A stretch of DNA of 64,000 bases, from positions 4,000,001 through 4,064,000 of the forward strand of contig OZ244937.1 in assembly GCA_965222075.1 (NCBI GenBank), read 5' to 3'. Shown piece after piece: positions 4,598-56,449 of the stretch. Made by a program: the position numbers and the translations under genes. How positions within the stretch are numbered: the first letter of the stretch is position 1; each line of letters begins with the position of its first letter. The notes beneath the pieces were generated by a model. It was not told where the DNA came from, made no database searches, and was given only the letters and a program-made list of their open reading frames with translations. Source of the stretch: Candidatus Latescibacterota bacterium (lineage in GTDB: Bacteria > Latescibacterota > UBA2968 > GCA-2709665).

Positions 4598-4786
4598 GCT
4601 GCTTTCGAATGACAGCCATAAGGATGATGACATAATTTGGCAGGTACGTTCTACAACACGGTCACCATAGAAATTTCCAAACTCGGTTTTGAGTATTGGA
4701 AAAACGCAAAAGGTTCCCACGAAAAGAGGAGCGCGAAGTCGCCGCGATTCAGGGCGTCATTTTGAGACTTTCCCAGGAGGAACACC

Positions 4787-5056
4787 ATGACACAAACAAC
4801 CGAAAACGTAATACTCACAATTGAGCACGGCGTGTTTTACAGCAAAGAGGGCTTTGTGAGCGGCACCCCCATTTTCGTGGGGACCCGTGTGCCACTGAAG
4901 AATCTGTTTGATTATCTGGCGGGTGGGCACAATCTGGACGAATTTCTGGACGATTTCCCGGGTGTAAGCCGCGAGCAGGCAATAAGGACGCTTGATATGG
5001 CGAGGGAAGTCCTGGAGAGCATTGCTTATGAGACTGCTCAGTGCCAATGCAGCTAA
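4787..5056 (+). CDS. DUF433 antitoxin
   Basis: SGTPIFVGTRVP..LFDYL..G..LDEFLDDFPGVSREQ; AGGAGG RBS. Confidence 0.85.
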   Translation: MTQTTENVILTIEHGVFYSKEGFVSGTPIFVGTRVPLKNLFDYLAGGHNLDEFLDDFPGVSREQAIRTLDMAREVLESIAYETAQCQCS

Positions 5057-21277: not shown

Positions 21278-22051
21278 CTATACCTCCCACCTGAATGTTC
21301 TTAAGGAAACCAGGTATGCCAGTACAGTAATTCCCGCAAGAAACAGCAATGAGTTCACATGCTGAGAGACCGGGTCTCCGAGCCAGATACCGGAGAAGGT
21401 CTCTACGACATGGGTCAAAGGAGAAGCGTTGCTCAACTTCTGCAACCATTCCGGAAACAATTGCCGAGGAAAAGTAGCCCCTGATATAAAAAACATGGTG
21501 AGAAACAGAAATTTGCCCAACGCCTGGATGCTTCTTGGGGATTTAGATAGCCCACTTACAAAGAAGCCCAGAGCGAAAAAGCACGCGGTACAGACTACAG
21601 CTACGAACAGAACAGGAGCCCAATGCCCACGAAAATTGATATCAAAGACACATTCTGCTACAACAGCCAGGATCAATGAAGATATCACTAAAACGACAAA
21701 TTGGACCGCAGCGTGGGCACAAAGATAGCTCCCAAGTGAGACGGGGCTTACGACGTAACGCTTTAGAACGCCAATCTGACGGTAGGAAGCCAGAAAGTGG
21801 GTTAGATTGACAAGGCCGGCTTGTCCAACGTATGCTGCCATTAGCGCAGGTGCATAAAAATCCATATAGCGCAGGTCAGAGTGGTCCCACAGAGGAGAGT
21901 CCCCAAAAAGAGAACCGAATAATAGAAAGAGCAGTACAGGGAAAACGAAGGTAAAGAAGGCTGCTACCGGTTGACGAAGGAACAATTTGCTCTCTATAAC
22001 CCACAGCGTAAAGAAGCTGCGAAACCATACGCTTCTACCAGAAGATGCCAT
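21278..22051 (-). CDS. ABC-2 type permease
   Basis: KLFLRQP.AAFFTFVFP, FISGATFP..LFPEWLQ..PLTH. Confidence 0.9.
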   Translation of the reverse strand: MASSGRSVWFRSFFTLWVIESKLFLRQPVAAFFTFVFPVLLFLLFGSLFGDSPLWDHSDLRYMDFYAPALMAAYVGQAGLVNLTHFLASYRQIGVLKRYVVSPVSLGSYLCAHAAVQFVVLVISSLILAVVAECVFDINFRGHWAPVLFVAVVCTACFFALGFFVSGLSKSPRSIQALGKFLFLTMFFISGATFPRQLFPEWLQKLSNASPLTHVVETFSGIWLGDPVSQHVNSLLFLAGITVLAYLVSLRTFRWEV

Positions 22052-22184
22052 CTTAGCCAGAATCCTATTGGGGCACCCATGATGATGAAAATAGTTGCAT
22101 TAACAGACTTGTACTGTAACGTCCGCCGTCCGTACACGCCCTCTCACGCGTTTCGCCTCTGCGATCCCACCACCACCACGCCTG

Positions 22185-22211
22185 CCTGTCTGCGTGCGAC
22201 GCACAGGCAGG
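22185..22211. repeat. CCTG-ended mini-palindrome (27 bp)
   Basis: CCTGTCTGCGTGCGACGCACAGGCAGG. Confidence 0.9.
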
Positions 22212-22389
22212 CGGGCTGGCGCCCCTAACTTGCCGACTCCCCCGGGTTGGTGTGGGGTGAAGGGGCTTTTCCGCGCAGATCCCCCCAGCACCTGCGCCCA
22301 AAAACGCCCAAAAGGTCCGCAGGGCACAAACGCCTGCTTACACCACAGGCGCAGTTCGCGGAAAAGCAGCCCCCGCGGCGTTTGAGCGG

Positions 22390-22422
22390 CCTGCCTGCAG
22401 CGCGGTGCGCCGCGCAGGCAGG
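22390..22422. repeat. CCTG-ended mini-palindrome (33 bp)
   Basis: CCTGCCTGCAGCGCGGTGCGCCGCGCAGGCAGG. Confidence 0.9.
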
Positions 22423-22749
22423 CGCCCTTCTTTTTCGGCCTTTTTCTTGGGCGAACCAGTAGTTTCCGGTTAGGATTTTGCAGAGGGGAGACAGCGAGGT
22501 CACAGAAGGCTTGATAAAAGGCGCTCTCCATGAAAGATTAGAGTTGTCAGTAAAAGACTCTACCCTTTCAAAGGAGGTGCCCATGTCGATCCTGTCCTGT
22601 TCCCCACTGTCTCCCATGGTAGAAGAAAAAGGATTTCCTAAAGGATCGCCAACATTTTCTGTCCTGCTTGGGCCTTTGGAAGCTTGCTTACCTTATCTGA
22701 CTCCGTTGGAATCAGGTAGCAACAAGCCGTTGACTTACACGTTTGCGCA

Positions 22750-22778
22750 CCTGTCTGCGTAAGGAACGCACAGGCAGG
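22750..22778. repeat. CCTG-ended mini-palindrome (29 bp)
   Basis: CCTGTCTGCGTAAGGAACGCACAGGCAGG; removal restores ..FAHQIRGL.. Confidence 0.92.
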
Positions 22779-22821
22779 TCAAATTCGGGGCTTAGTGTAT
22801 TATCATACAGAGACTTGCACG

Positions 22822-22854
22822 CCTGCCTGCCGCGCCGAACGCGGCGCAGGCAGG
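22822..22854. repeat. CCTG-ended mini-palindrome (33 bp)
   Basis: CCTGCCTGCCGCGCCGAACGCGGCGCAGGCAGG; removal restores ..ETCTSAQD.. Confidence 0.92.
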
Positions 22855-22889
22855 TCTGCTCAGGATCTGCTTTTCGCGGCAAGATGTGA

Positions 22890-22916
22890 CCTGTCTGCGT
22901 GCAACGCACAGGCAGG
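22890..22916. repeat. CCTG-ended mini-palindrome (27 bp)
   Basis: CCTGTCTGCGTGCAACGCACAGGCAGG. Confidence 0.92.
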
Positions 22917-23021
22917 TGGGTTTGTGAACCGATTGCTGGTGCCCCCATCAGGTCTTGGTAAGAGCACTTTTTATGAAGCCAATGCCAGTCGGGGCAGCAC
23001 TCAGATGATCGAGTTGGTGGA

Positions 23022-23048
23022 CCTGTCTGCGTGCAACGCACAGGCAGG
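23022..23048. repeat. CCTG-ended mini-palindrome (27 bp)
   Basis: Identical to 22890-22916. Confidence 0.92.
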
Positions 23049-23657
23049 TCGACTTTCTAAGAAAGCCGCCAAATGCGTAGGCCGCTCTTACGCTGAGCTT
23101 GGCCATTTGGTGGTCATCGACGGGAGCCTGATTGGTGCGTGTTTGTCCATGACCTGGGCAGACGTATCTTGGAGATGTGCGCAAGGCCAAGATGCACTTA
23201 GGCTTGGATCTTTCCGGCTCGATTCCAAGAAAGATGATCCTGACCGAAGGGAGAGGCGCGGAAAGACCGTTTGTCTCTCATCTTCTAAAAGAAGGTGAAA
23301 CCGGCGTTCTGGATCGGGGCTACCAGGACCATCAGCGGTTTGATGCCTGGATTGCAGAAGGCAAGCACATAGTGGTGCGCTTGAAGAAGAACACCAAATG
23401 GGAAGTCATAGAAGCCCTACCATTTGAAAAAGGCACATCTATCTTCTTTTTTTCCAAAGTCTTACTGGGTGATCCCGTGCACAGGATGACCCATCCAGTC
23501 TACCTAATAGGCTTCGAAAGTCGAGGCAAAACATACTGGATCGCTACCGACAGAGAGGACCTGACCGCAGAGCAAATCGCCTTCATTTTCTCGCTTAGAT
23601 GGCAAGTTGAAACCTTCTTCGCCTGGTGGAAAAAGCACCTCAAGGTCTATCATCTCA

Positions 23658-23711
23658 CCTGCCTGTGCGTTGCACGCTTGCCTGCGCGCAGCGCGCAAGC
23701 AGGCAGACAGG
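23658..23711. repeat. Nested mini-palindromes (27 bp outer + 27 bp inner at 23677-23703)
   Basis: Outer is the exact reverse complement of the 22890 copy; inner CTTGCCTGCGCGCAGCGCGCAAGCAGG; removal restores ..YHLISRNPHG.. Confidence 0.92.
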
Positions 23712-23900
23712 TCTCCAGAAACCCTCACGGTGTCCTGGTGCAATTGCTTTCTGGACTGATCACTTATCTTCTGTTGGTGATCTATTTCCATCAACGCTAT
23801 GGACAACGGCCTTGTGTGAAATATCTGCGACAGTTGAGATGGGATATCCGACATGAAACCCAGCCACCGACCCTTGTGCATATCTACCTGGTGATACAGA

Positions 23901-23929
23901 CCTGCCTGCGCCGCAGCGCGGCAGGCAGG
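23901..23929. repeat. CCTG-ended mini-palindrome (29 bp)
   Basis: CCTGCCTGCGCCGCAGCGCGGCAGGCAGG; removal runs the frame to the TAA inside the right TIR. Confidence 0.9.
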
Positions 23930-24023
23930 CAGATACGCGGTTATCTCCACTGATTTTCCTATGGCTTTTGAACCCAGCAATTTTCTAACCGGAAATTGCT
24001 GGGGCGAACAAGAAAAAGGCCAA

Positions 24024-24052
24024 GAGTAAAAGAAAGGTTATTTTCTAAGCAG
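24024..24052. repeat. 29-bp dispersed repeat, copy 1
   Basis: GAGTAAAAGAAAGGTTATTTTCTAAGCAG, 28/29 to 31725-31753. Confidence 0.9.
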
Positions 24053-24091
24053 TTTCTCACACCCACCCTATTTCCGAGCCTCCCTCTGCAT

Positions 24092-24499
24092 TCAGAGCCT
24101 GGCACCCCGGATCACCGTCTGCAGGGCGTCAAGGTGGGTCCGCAAGGCCGTCCTGCCCTTCTCCGTGAGGCTGTACCAGCTCACCGGCTTGCGATTTTCA
24201 AACTGCTTGGACACACCCACGTACCCGGCATCCTCCAGTTTACGCAGGTGCGCTCCCATATTCCCATCCGTCTCCTTGAGAAGCTGCTTCAGGCTGGTAA
24301 ACGACATCGCGTCTGTGTCGGCCAGCAGCACACACACACCGAGCCGGCTGCGGTGTTCCAGCAGCTTGTCCAGCCATGCCAGGCCTTTGGAAGTAACTTC
24401 AGCGGGTTGCGCCATCTTTTCTCTGTCTACACGCTCTCGAATATCGGAGCACGCCAGGCCTTTGGAAGTGACTTCAGCGGGTTGCGGTGGCTTTGTCAT
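24092..24499 (-). CDS. Winged-helix (ArsR/MarR-like) transcriptional regulator
   Basis: RLGVCVLL..SFTSLKQLLKETDGNMGAHLRKLEDAGYV..YSLTEKGR; alternative start 24415. Confidence 0.88.
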   Translation of the reverse strand: MTKPPQPAEVTSKGLACSDIRERVDREKMAQPAEVTSKGLAWLDKLLEHRSRLGVCVLLADTDAMSFTSLKQLLKETDGNMGAHLRKLEDAGYVGVSKQFENRKPVSWYSLTEKGRTALRTHLDALQTVIRGARL

Positions 24500-37227: not shown

Positions 37228-37277
37228 CCTGCCTGTCCGGGGGACCTGTCTGCCGACGAGGCAGGCAGACAGGCAGG
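37228..37277. repeat. Nested CCTG mini-palindromes (29 bp outer + 21 bp inner at 37245-37265)
   Basis: CCTGCCTGTCCGGGGGA[CCTGTCTGCCGACGAGGCAGG]CAGACAGGCAGG. Confidence 0.88.
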
Positions 37278-46110: not shown

Positions 46111-46461
46111 TAGAATTTCCGGTTAAAATTTTGCTGGGGTCAAAAAGCTGTTAAAATATCCGTAAGGTATTTCTAAACAAAATGTTAAGCATAAAAACTT
46201 GCTTCGACACGACCGATATCTACCTTGGATAACCCTGCCAAACGGCGCTCTCGGAACCCATCGCCTTCGGGATGACGCCCAGATTGCTCGAACTTTGATT
46301 GCGCCGAAAGGCCCAAATCGTCCAAAAGGCCGTTGAAAGGCCTCGTTTGTAATTTTTCGCTCGGAATCCTTAAGCAGGATGGTATGGCAAGAAAGGCTTT
46401 AGTTAACCTTTGTTTCTAATTGTCTTATTAAAGCAAGCAATTTTCTAACCGGAAATTACTG
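46111..46461. mobile_element. Non-autonomous IS4-type MITE (~350 bp)
   Basis: Ends (TAG)AATTTCCGGTTA / GCAATTTTCTAACCGGAAATTACTG match the IS4 TIRs; GATTCTG on both flanks; no ORF. Confidence 0.8.
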
Positions 46462-46905
46462 GATTCTGTAGAAAAAATAGGGTTATAACCGGACGAACTT
46501 TTTTCTTTGAATTCAGCCCGCCCCCTGAGTTTGAGAAAAAGCCACTGAATTCAAACAGGTCTTGTATTTTAACGACTTATTGTTTTCAAGCCCTTAAGCA
46601 CTTATCCAAAAAGTGTTCACGGTATTGTGGAAAAGAATCCATCTGTTTTTCTTGAAGAGCGCATGACGCCTGTGAGTTATTCCCATTTATCTTGAAATAT
46701 GTGGAAACCGGTGTGGAAAATTGGAGATCGGGCGGTGGCGAACCAGCGCTGAGCGGGAAGGGCATAGAACCCGAAATTCCGGTATTTCGGGGGGGGGCGG
46801 GGGAGAAGAATTCGCTTGCTACCCCCTCTGAATTGTTCTATATTTAAGTAAATTTCGAGCTATTTGGCACACGAGAATCACCATTTAGCCCAGGGATAAG
46901 GGCGC

Positions 46906-54961: not shown

Positions 54962-56422
54962 CTACCGGCCGCCAAACAGTTTTCCGATCAGACCCCACCC
55001 GCTGATGCCCGCAAAAACAACCAGAACCCCGGCCGACACGGCCGCGCCGATCACCATCGGAAGCCGGGTCCGGTAGGCGGGTGGAAGCTTGAAATTCAAA
55101 TACAGGGCGGCAAGCATAATCAGCGCGATGGAGAAATTCGCCAAGATGAAACCCGCGATTTGCGTCAGGATGTCGAATGGAATGTTGAGCCAGACAATAA
55201 CCATCGTAGCGGTGAATATGTAGGCGCAAATAACGCGCCGGATTTTATGGTAATCCCACTCGCGGTCGGGCCAAATTGCCTGAAAGAACTCCTGTGTCAC
55301 CCGGGCGTAGATCTCGGGCAGCGCCTGCAGCGTCCCCCACAGCGCTGCGATAATACAAATATAGTAGACCCACACCAGCGATGGGTGGATATTGCTCCAG
55401 ACGTGGGCCTGGTTCGTCAGCAGGGTCCAACCCTCAAATCGGGTCTCAAGCGGGTACAGAACCGCAGCCCCGGACAACATAAACGCCCCCGTCACCACGA
55501 GCAGAACGACTGCGCCCGTGCCCACATCCCACCGCAGGGGCGCAACAAGCTGCCGCAGCCGGCTCACCTCCTCCGGACTGTCGGGCAGATAGTTGATTGC
55601 ATCGTGTGTGAACGCATGCTGGCGGATCGCTTCAATCTTCCTATGGCACGTCAGCCCCCAGCCGTGCAACCCAATCCAGTTGGCGTAAACAATATATGAC
55701 ATTACCGACCCACCGACGTATCCGAAGGTCGTCGCCATGGTCAACATCGGGTGCTTGATCGTATCTTCCGGCGCCCAGGAGGGAAATGGCGGCAGGTGCC
55801 CAAAGCTGAGACTTCCCCAAAACGCTTCCCAGAAACCGGGACGCACCATCAGCGTGCCGATAATCGTCCCGCTGACAAGAATACAGCAGATCGCGATCTG
55901 CTGTTTCTCCAACCTCTCAAACGAAAGCCGCAGTCCAAGGGTCAACGCAAGCCCGATGAAGCAGGACGTAATCATATTCTCCCAGACAGGCTCCAAAACC
56001 CACGCCGGCAGAACACTTTGAAGCAGAAAGTGAAACAGGTCGCCGCAGGGTTTGGCAATCGGCACCCAGGCCAGCGGCGCGCCCAGCATCTCCGAAGCCA
56101 CAAGCGCAAGCAGCAGCCACCCGCGCGGCCCCGGCAGCCGCACCAGGCGGTGCCCGATGTATTCGCCGCTGATCGCCGTATAGCGTCCAACCAGATAAGT
56201 GACGAACACCCCCTTGACAACGCAGCTGAGCAGCACGAGCCACAGCAGCCCGTAGCCTGCCCACGCGCCCGCCCGAACCACGACAATCGTCTCGCCCGCC
56301 CCAATGCTCACCGACGCCACGATCGCCGCAGGTCCGAAAACCGCGAATAGCCCGACCAGCTTCTTCGCCGACCACCCCTCGGCAAAAATGCCGCTGACGG
56401 GCGGGATATCTATTTTGTCCAT
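54962..56422 (-). CDS. Nramp/MntH-like transporter
   Basis: FGPAAIVASVSIGAGE..GAWAGYGLLW; about 11 hydrophobic segments. Confidence 0.85.
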   Translation of the reverse strand: MDKIDIPPVSGIFAEGWSAKKLVGLFAVFGPAAIVASVSIGAGETIVVVRAGAWAGYGLLWLVLLSCVVKGVFVTYLVGRYTAISGEYIGHRLVRLPGPRGWLLLALVASEMLGAPLAWVPIAKPCGDLFHFLLQSVLPAWVLEPVWENMITSCFIGLALTLGLRLSFERLEKQQIAICCILVSGTIIGTLMVRPGFWEAFWGSLSFGHLPPFPSWAPEDTIKHPMLTMATTFGYVGGSVMSYIVYANWIGLHGWGLTCHRKIEAIRQHAFTHDAINYLPDSPEEVSRLRQLVAPLRWDVGTGAVVLLVVTGAFMLSGAAVLYPLETRFEGWTLLTNQAHVWSNIHPSLVWVYYICIIAALWGTLQALPEIYARVTQEFFQAIWPDREWDYHKIRRVICAYIFTATMVIVWLNIPFDILTQIAGFILANFSIALIMLAALYLNFKLPPAYRTRLPMVIGAAVSAGVLVVFAGISGWGLIGKLFGGR

Positions 56423-56449
56423 CCTTGTGTACTCCTTACACCATGGCCT

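Follow-up and report, generated by a model that had tools for sequence, protein, structure and literature searches.

Small REP-like palindromes in an IS4-family insertion sequence and in other transposase DNA of a Candidatus Latescibacterota genome

Repetitive extragenic palindromes (REPs) have been described, in the passages of PMC3733652, PMC3116915 and PMC3337134 drawn on here, as short (20-40 nt), GC-rich, imperfect and bulged palindromes that are present in hundreds of copies, mainly extragenic and often adjacent to one another, with some intragenic copies and several subfamilies. The palindromes analysed here come from a 64,000-nt stretch of a Candidatus Latescibacterota genome (the window, positions 4,000,001-4,064,000 of a 5.36-Mb genome with 59.3% GC in a single contig), in which seven of them lie inside the transposase gene of an IS4-family insertion sequence (IS). 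They resemble REPs in being GC-rich, imperfect, bulged, mainly extragenic and high in copy number, but they differ in having neither a GTAG nor a CGTC tag, no palindrome-flanked REP-associated tyrosine transposase (RAYT) gene and apparently no fixed doublet spacing. REP doublet forming hairpins (REPINs) are vertically inherited according to the part of bioRxiv 10.1101/2022.05.22.493013 used here, whereas the present family is patchy even within one genus (0-246 matches per genome). Passages of Di Nocera et al. 2013 (PMC3733652) describe CGTC-tagged REPs as a class apparently without a dedicated transposase, and report REPs that lie wholly within open reading frames (ORFs) and code for extra residues. 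Our family is similar in that no dedicated transposase was recognised and that copies occur within genes; the tag, however, is absent.

Rickettsia palindromic elements (RPEs) are palindromic repeats that sit in frame within protein-coding genes which stay functional (cited in the passages used of PMC3733652 and PMC3184786). The present palindromes share this habit of in-frame insertion into functional ORFs, since 67 of the 79 gene-internal loci have a length that is a multiple of three, and they include atpC and two NtrC-type regulators. RPEs measure roughly 100-150 bp, whereas the units of the present family are 25-36 nt, far below that size. The very small dispersed repeats of cyanobacteria (Elhai et al. 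2008) are reported to be palindromic and mobile, with units of about 20-30 nt that enter genes as well as each other; the present family is similar in these respects but differs in sequence and phylum. A relationship between ISs and palindromes is also known, as ISPpu9 inserts in the REPs of Pseudomonas putida (parts of PMC8450116 and PMC12288879) and ISs that target REPs were described by Tobes and Pareja 2006 (cited in the part of PMC3184786 used). The IS4 element of the window and two of five miniature inverted-repeat transposable elements (MITEs) derived from it are comparable, as they sit in the loop of a repeated hairpin and the loop is duplicated as the target site. The known direction is, however, from IS to palindrome, and within the IS4 element it is the reverse, with palindromes having entered the IS. 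The palindromes are unlike MITEs, in that they have no target duplication at the six sites where this could be read, and no parent IS with matching ends was found. Because tag, RAYT and target duplication are all lacking, the family is placed in none of the REP-RAYT, RPE and MITE classes. We found no report in the literature searched of REP-like elements concentrated inside transposase genes; the text passages of PMC3733652 are silent on this, and its supplementary list of target ORFs lay outside the search.

The IS4 region was first bounded by a 45-nt inverted repeat at 22437-24021, but the true ends of the IS are at 22457 and 24001, with terminal inverted repeats of 25 bp (22457-22481 and 23977-24001) and an 8-bp direct repeat, GGGCGAAC, on both sides as target-site duplication (Table 1). 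It is the sole full copy in the genome. The IS4-family model NF033592 matched the C-terminal 258-aa piece with 117.8 bits (cut-off 115), and PF01609 matched the transposase pieces with an E value of 1.7e-18 and 67.5 bits (cut-off 23). An intact transposase frame, as expected of an active element, was not found in this copy. Homologues were found by protein search in nine of 41 genomes (the genome itself, G000, and 40 relatives), with open frames of 434 aa in G001 (same genus, 92% identity), 418 aa in G004 (same family, 89%) and 414 aa in G029 (eight copies, 68%), and the nearest named records with the same IS4 are Candidatus Latescibacterota metagenome-assembled genomes (MAGs).

Table 1. Features of the window discussed in the text, in window coordinates
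Feature	Position	Strand	Description
Element-H copy, left part	22064-22456		Multicopy non-coding repeat; from genome self-comparison (4022064-4022456)
Left palindrome	22181-22211		31 nt, 27-mer core starts at 22185; resident in Element-H
Left palindrome	22390-22422		33 nt; resident in Element-H
Left target duplication GGGCGAAC	22449-22456		Same as loop of Element-H hairpin
IS4-family insertion sequence	22457-24001	+	1545 bp, of which 199 nt are palindromes of this family; from transposase models and terminal inverted repeats
Transposase reading-frame remains	22583-23953	+	Broken by two 29-mers and the 1-nt insertion; otherwise stop-free
Insertion 1	22750-22778	+	29 nt, frameshifting; loop variant of the 27-mer lineage, variant unique in genome
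Insertion 2	22821-22853	+	33 nt, in frame; boundary ambiguous by 1 nt
Insertion 3	22890-22916	+	27 nt, in frame
Insertion 4	23022-23048	+	27 nt, in frame; identical to insertion 3
1-nt insertion	23164	+	Only non-palindrome lesion on the window side of the alignment
Insertions 5 and 6	23658-23711	+	54 nt in total, in frame; 27-mer nested in 27-mer
Insertion 7	23901-23929	+	29 nt, frameshifting, near C-terminus; variant unique in genome
Right target duplication (24002-24009) and right Element-H stem (24010-24021)	24002-24021		Flank sequence
Only other family member in the window	37228-37277		Compound locus whose units overlap; the gap between the gene calls on either side is about 1.1 kb
IS4-derived MITE	46114-46462		Same 25-bp terminal repeats; 5 copies in genome, 83-95% identical

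When the window sequence 22437-24021 was aligned by MAFFT with the intact homologous copies from G001 and G004, both of these copies showed the same six gaps, each of which matched a palindrome of the window. This confirms what the original prediction had read from one sequence, namely seven insertions at six sites, two of them frameshifting 29-mers and five of them in-frame 27- or 33-mers. The insertions are precise. No target duplication is present at any of the six sites as defined by the empty homologues, where the flanking letters are A^T at four sites, G^T at one and A^C at one. The outer 27-mer of the nested pair has the sequence of insertions 3 and 4 in reverse complement, and the inner one (23677-23703) has diverged. 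All the palindromes form bulged hairpins when folded, the DNA folding energy ranging from -7.5 to -18.6 kcal/mol, and an Rfam search of 21900-24200 gave no family at E <= 1. Palindromes are also the dominant type of indel in this IS, accounting for six sites against one other indel.

Apart from these insertions the transposase gene is well preserved. No stop codon was found in the 401 codons compared in the G001 frame with palindrome columns skipped, and in a three-taxon split the IS4 branch of the window had a dN/dS of 0.16 (dS 0.063), the intact copies having 0.23 and 0.21 on theirs. The palindromes therefore went into a gene on which purifying selection acted, or had acted until very recently, and the IS4 element of the window is not old dead DNA. 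This bears directly on the explanation that the IS is a slow neutral sink, long dead, which gained its palindromes at the low rate of any junk DNA. Such an explanation would be in agreement with our tally in which degenerate IS remnants are richer in palindromes than intact ones and young ISKra4 copies are empty. It is difficult to reconcile with a gene that shows no decay beyond palindromes and a single 1-nt insertion, or with the presence of empty or variant sites in closely related sequence from other samples, and we consider it improbable.

These closely related sequences were contigs of four public metagenome runs (X1, X15, X16 and X19) aligned to the IS region. The contigs are short, the best runs may include the sample behind the genome assembly, and neither uncovered stretches nor joints whose shorter side had less than 31 letters were counted as absence. 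Within these rules, sites 1 and 2 (insertions 1 and 2 of Table 1) are both empty in one X1 contig, which omits 29 letters and then skips 33 nt, and the filled site 2 is spanned without a difference by an X15 contig. At site 1, an X16 contig and an X15 contig carry a version with one extra letter and another loop, and a minor X1 form is two letters shorter. The palindrome at this fixed site seems to change or to be replaced quickly, and from these short contigs we conclude only that the palindrome sites of the IS4 are young and variable. Contigs of X15 and X19 join 23657 to 23712, which would remove the nested pair, but the shorter side of the joint is only 30 letters long, making this a weak observation that was not counted as absence. 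The 1-nt insertion is missing from every covering contig of all four runs, each of which has one letter fewer (at 23164 in X15, X16 and X19, and at 23162 in X1), and may be specific to the strain or an assembly error.

It had also been proposed that the palindromes accumulated in a previous host; on this view the IS4 arrived with a load acquired there or on another replicon. Palindromes do travel on IS copies, as is the case for a five-copy IS in G021 and for two palindromes common to an ISKra4-like pair, both described below, and the family is patchy among relatives. Against such an import, none of the 14 loci that were fetched with homologous IS4 copies (from G001, G004, G029 and two distant MAGs) carries a palindrome, and the sites filled in the window are empty in the relatives' copies; G004 as a whole has only two pattern matches, which is background. 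The IS4-derived MITEs of the same genome are also free of palindromes, the variants in the IS4 are the common variants of this genome, and the sites are polymorphic among near-identical sequences. The same IS4 with the same insertions was not found in another lineage or plasmid in the collections searched. The G001 copy lies on a 2.8-kb contig with a right flank different from that of the window, and is probably at another locus, hence it offers no orthologous site. Taken with the background count of G004, the empty relatives speak against a previous host, and we regard import as the least credible of the explanations considered here, with very little to be said for it.

The two palindromes to the left of the IS, which had been counted as additional hits, are indeed present but have a different origin. 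The IS4 lies within a copy of a multicopy repeat, Element-H, whose sequence surrounds the IS in the window (22064-22456 and 24002-24060) and which has at least 49 copies in the genome that show its hairpin with conserved flanks (e.g. at genome positions 3772596 and 3992715), with dozens of matches in G001, G002 and G003. Its terminal hairpin has 12-bp stems (the left stem at 22437-22448) and an 8-nt loop, and uninterrupted hairpins with the loop GGGCGAAC occur at other places of the genome. The duplication of this loop on both sides of the IS4 means that the IS inserted into it, and as two of the five IS4-derived MITEs likewise sit in an Element-H hairpin loop, the IS4 appears to target this hairpin. 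The left palindrome at 22181-22211 recurs, with its flanks and its offset of -249 unchanged, in another Element-H copy (genome position 854411), and the 33-mer at 22390-22422 is found identically, in the same context at an offset of -47, in 11 of 49 Element-H copies. Given these shared offsets, the left palindromes came with the target and were not hits adjacent to the IS4. In all, the neighbourhoods of Element-H, 49 stretches of about 560 bp, contain 22 palindromes.

Throughout the genome, the family was defined by its outer stem, CCTG[C/T]CTG...CAG[G/A]CAGG, and matches were merged into loci. The strict pattern gave 223 merged loci against 2 in a third-order Markov simulation of the genome, and 288 against 22 when up to one mismatch was allowed, which rules out chance as the origin of the matches. 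Units are 25-36 nt long, mostly 27 or 33 nt, and hence mostly multiples of three. Genes were called with a home-made codon-score caller (4030 genes covering 85.5% of the genome; the calls are crude), by which 143 of the 223 loci are intergenic, 79 are inside genes and one lies over a gene edge, with 14.5% of the genome free of gene calls. Palindrome density is 1.31/kb in 26 transposase-like loci (26 palindromes in 19.9 kb), 0.166/kb in other intergenic DNA (128 in 770 kb) and 0.015/kb in other coding DNA (69 in 4.56 Mb). As such, the excess in transposase DNA is general and not a quirk of one IS. No other 1585-bp stretch of the genome is as dense as the IS4 region, which has six merged loci, and the Poisson probability of five or more is 8.5e-6 at intergenic density and 0.038 at the density of other IS remnants; it is extreme, yet part of a class. 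Among 15 clusters of three or more palindromes, nine overlap transposase remnants by our tally from the cluster list and family searches, and a tenth contains an end fragment of an IS4-derived MITE. Besides the IS4 itself, the transposase DNA in these clusters comprises IS982 (E 9e-37), the ISKra4-like pair, an IS1182-like remnant adjacent to an IS701-like one, a DUF4096/IS5-like remnant, rve fragments and a DDE_Tnp_1 fragment that is duplicated.

Comparison with other dispensable DNA in the window is less informative than had been thought. A scan of the window, with the strict pattern or one mismatch, found no palindromes outside the IS4 region except for the compound locus listed in Table 1, so that the two tracts taken for pseudogenes and the MITE are indeed empty. 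However, neither tract could be confirmed as a pseudogene, making them a weak control: that at 3.9-5.5 kb holds a DUF433 ORF (4766-5053, E 1.6e-11), and that at 54.8-57.5 kb an open 495-aa ORF (54965-56449) with a sub-threshold Nramp match (25.4 bits, cut-off 29.8).

The explanation that we favour for the excess in transposase DNA, although the case for it is in our judgement evenly balanced, is tolerance of insertions in DNA that the host can dispense with, together with co-location (the IS targets a palindrome-bearing repeat), spread over short range and occasional hitch-hiking. The hairpins are very small mobile palindromes, REP-like, which insert precisely between a purine and a pyrimidine and also into each other. 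By its own preference of target, the IS4 would have come to lie in the hairpin loop of a multicopy repeat in which two palindromes were already resident, and as the host does not need a transposase gene, insertions there would have been tolerated. Palindromes that keep the frame probably built up at a time when the transposase was still intact, several being of a single local lineage, and only recently would the two 29-nt variants and the 1-nt insertion have disrupted the frame. Tolerance fits the gradient of densities, from coding to intergenic DNA and, in our own tally, from the ISKra4 copies (0/kb) through single-copy ISs with open frames (about 0.5/kb) to degenerate ISs (about 2.3/kb). For palindromes inside genes, the lowest decile of coding score has 0.061/kb and the top quartile no more than 0.0096/kb. 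On this reading no anti-transposon mechanism is needed for the genome-wide excess. The insertions, their precision, the enrichment, the selective signature of the IS, the target hairpin and the hitch-hiking are observations, while the local donors, the sequence of events and the role of tolerance are deduced.

Local spread had been raised before as a tendency to hop locally, and finds partial support. The same 27-mer makes up three of the seven IS4 elements, another is a loop variant of it, and 240 bp upstream there is a variant that differs by 1 nt; the binomial probability of three or more of seven is about 0.004 if the variant makes up about 12 in 225. In the ISKra4-like pair described below, copy B alone gained four palindromes beyond the two that both copies share. 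Genome-wide, eight identical neighbours are found within 2 kb against 2.26 after shuffling (p=0.006), so that neighbours are more alike than expected.

Several points weigh against the combination of tolerance and local spread. The binomial test is post hoc, as is the test of four of seven elements belonging to one lineage, and the excess of identical neighbours is inflated by duplicated segments. The census of ISs was partly guided by the positions of clusters, and some Pfam families were picked because clusters pointed to them, which introduces ascertainment bias; some of its loci are in addition duplicates (the 1604k/4161k fragments, the ISKra4-like pair and a 3.6-kb segmental duplication of 88% identity). 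Gene-free gaps longer than 1.2 kb, whatever their nature, have only 0.12/kb (22 palindromes in 183.5 kb). The five IS4-derived MITEs, which have IS4 ends and their own 8-11-bp target duplications, contain no palindrome in about 2 kb in total, where about 2.7 would be expected at the density of old ISs (P(0) about 0.07). In other genomes, the surroundings of DDE_Tnp_1 matches hold 0 palindromes in 12.7 kb (G009), 1 in 3.9 kb (G003), 1 in 3.0 kb (G019) and 0 in 2.2 kb (G024), and the excess in transposase DNA is thus not universal among palindrome-rich genomes; G021 has 18 in 21.9 kb, many of which are copies of the same event. Finally, by our own rough arithmetic, the IS4 received 5-7 insertions in 1.35 kb within a dS of at most 0.063, or about 60-80 per kb for each unit of dS, and the figure for copy B of the ISKra4-like pair is about 70. 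At the IS4 rate, intergenic DNA (770 kb) would be predicted to hold thousands of palindromes, but it has 128; either more than 90% have been purged or the rate is lower outside IS DNA, and tolerance alone may not be enough.

A rival explanation is true targeting, by which the insertion machinery prefers transposase or IS DNA through some feature and progressively disables ISs. Density in transposase DNA is 8-fold that of other intergenic DNA and about 11-fold that of the long gene-free gaps, and at least seven families are affected (IS4, ISKra4-like, IS982, IS1182-like, IS701-like, IS5/DUF4096 and DDE_Tnp_1 fragments); rve fragments, too, have palindromes next to them. The IS4 took up seven palindromes without a signature of relaxed selection, and palindromes dominate among indels both there and in ISKra4-like copy B. 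This copy (genome 3463500-3465400) is 96.6% identical to copy A (2831200-2833000) and shares two palindromes with it; copy B alone has four more clean insertions, of 27, 27, 25 and 25 nt, all absent from copy A, and the two copies differ by no other internal indel of at least 3 nt (4/4). On the other hand, four ISKra4 copies (three at 99.9-100% identity and one at 92.9%) have no palindrome in 6.3 kb (0/kb), the IS4-derived MITEs have none, and the empty 12.7 kb of DDE-transposase DNA in G009 stand against 241 pattern matches in that genome. Ordinary intergenic DNA holds the majority of the loci (143 of 223), and in some clusters no IS was found, e.g. at genome 4120107-4120570. There is also no common motif beyond S-R^Y-S and no bias of replication strand, and in-frame copies do not stop an IS from multiplying. 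We hold true targeting to be a serious rival, though on the unlikely side. A stronger version, in which preferential integration into transposase genes, or into mobile DNA in general, at a rate nearing a tenth of the per-site substitution rate would be the main mutational force on the ISs of these genomes, one selfish element policing another, strikes us as somewhat more doubtful still.

The multiplication of an IS that carries palindromes is seen in G021, where an IS5-like element of about 1310 bp is present in five copies of 99.8-100% identity at five loci (L057-L061; approximately 933-2250 of L057). Every copy has a 27-mer 63 nt upstream of the ORF and an in-frame 36-mer inside the 260-aa ORF, and since the copies are nearly identical, the palindromes ride on a recently transposed IS. 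In-frame palindromes need not inactivate an IS. This, together with the four ISKra4 copies that carry none, does not favour the proposal that the palindromes are a way of inactivating transposons. A related explanation is selection at the level of the host, in which lineages with a transposase damped or broken by palindromes were favoured and the hits retained. It would be consistent with enrichment specifically in transposase genes, and GC-rich hairpins with the folding energies given above could conceivably impede expression. Selection cannot, however, account for six further hits once a first one had inactivated the gene, five of the seven are in frame, and the G021 element multiplies with two palindromes; we find this explanation very unlikely.

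The number of palindromes differs greatly among the 41 genomes, with 242 raw pattern matches in the genome itself; five others have 246, 241, 140, 139 and 133, and many have 0-6. A reversed pattern gave 0-2 per genome. The same subfamily sequences recur across genera. Patchy counts and shared subfamilies together suggest bursts or the horizontal spread of a mobilising agent. A search of G001 for orthologous DNA of two palindrome-rich loci found none at E <= 1e-30.

The sites themselves offer some clues to mobilisation. Genome-wide, the flanks follow R^Y, with A at 97 and G at 106 of 223 loci in position -1, and C at 103 and T at 90 in position +1, and the positions outside these are G or C (S-R^Y-S). 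This motif is too common to explain clustering, and no more restrictive one was seen. Neither end has a GTAG or CGTC tag in the composition of flanks from -8 to -1 and from +1 to +8. A preference for low-GC or foreign DNA was discarded, as the GC content next to palindromes is the same as at randomly chosen positions in DNA of that class. An IS608-like mechanism acting on single-stranded DNA, and with it the earlier idea that exposed single-stranded DNA is the target, finds no support in replication-strand bias, which is not significant (59:41, p=0.09; 60:52, p=0.51). The genome has two Y1_Tnp (PF01797) matches: a 147-aa IS200-type gene, beside which are unrelated hairpins and which is 12.9 kb from the nearest palindrome, and a fragment with an internal stop that has one palindrome 295 bp away. 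Across the 41 genomes Y1_Tnp presence bears no relation to palindrome number (139 palindromes and 0 Y1 matches in G019; 2 and 32 in G004), and in the absence of both a palindrome-flanked RAYT gene in the genome and such a correlation, a RAYT link was rejected. An IS110-type transposase was likewise set aside, PF01548 having no match in the genome. A parent IS with matching ends was not found either, as the ends of ISKra4 are unrelated and solo half-sites have no consistent extension. Many neighbours (12 pairs) are separated by less than 50 bp, and in this comparison of spacings no preferred distance like that of REPIN doublets was visible.

If a preference for transposase DNA is real, this would be an undescribed interaction in which tiny non-coding mobile hairpins colonise and eventually break ISs, and it would bear on how compact genomes hold their IS load low. 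Even if tolerance accounts for the excess, this is a REP-like family without a recognisable RAYT in a poorly studied lineage, with precise insertions that lack target duplication, are mostly multiples of three and reach essential genes such as atpC. Palindrome insertion is in that case still the dominant type of indel in dispensable DNA, and palindromes and ISs carry and target each other. The clean pairs of filled and empty sites that the family provides are a means of finding the mobilising enzyme.

Some further loci illustrate the range of contexts in which the palindromes occur. In atpC (genome 390140-390577) an in-frame 33-nt palindrome is present at 390299-390331, and the Pfam beta-sandwich domain of the protein is longer by 11 residues (protein positions 4-94 on profile positions 1-80). 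The two NtrC-type sigma-54 regulators, which are paralogous (genome 498904-500409 and 2829124-2830653), have two palindromes each. A regulator of this type is included in the segmental duplication of about 3.6 kb and 88% identity between genome positions 498960-502489 and 2827002-2830627, each copy of which has an rve-type transposase fragment with palindromes beside it, and some palindrome clusters are therefore paralogous and not independent. Lastly, one intergenic region (genome 1139014-1139359) has the same 27-nt palindrome three times at distances of 153-166 bp, which looks like the tandem duplication of a palindrome-bearing unit.

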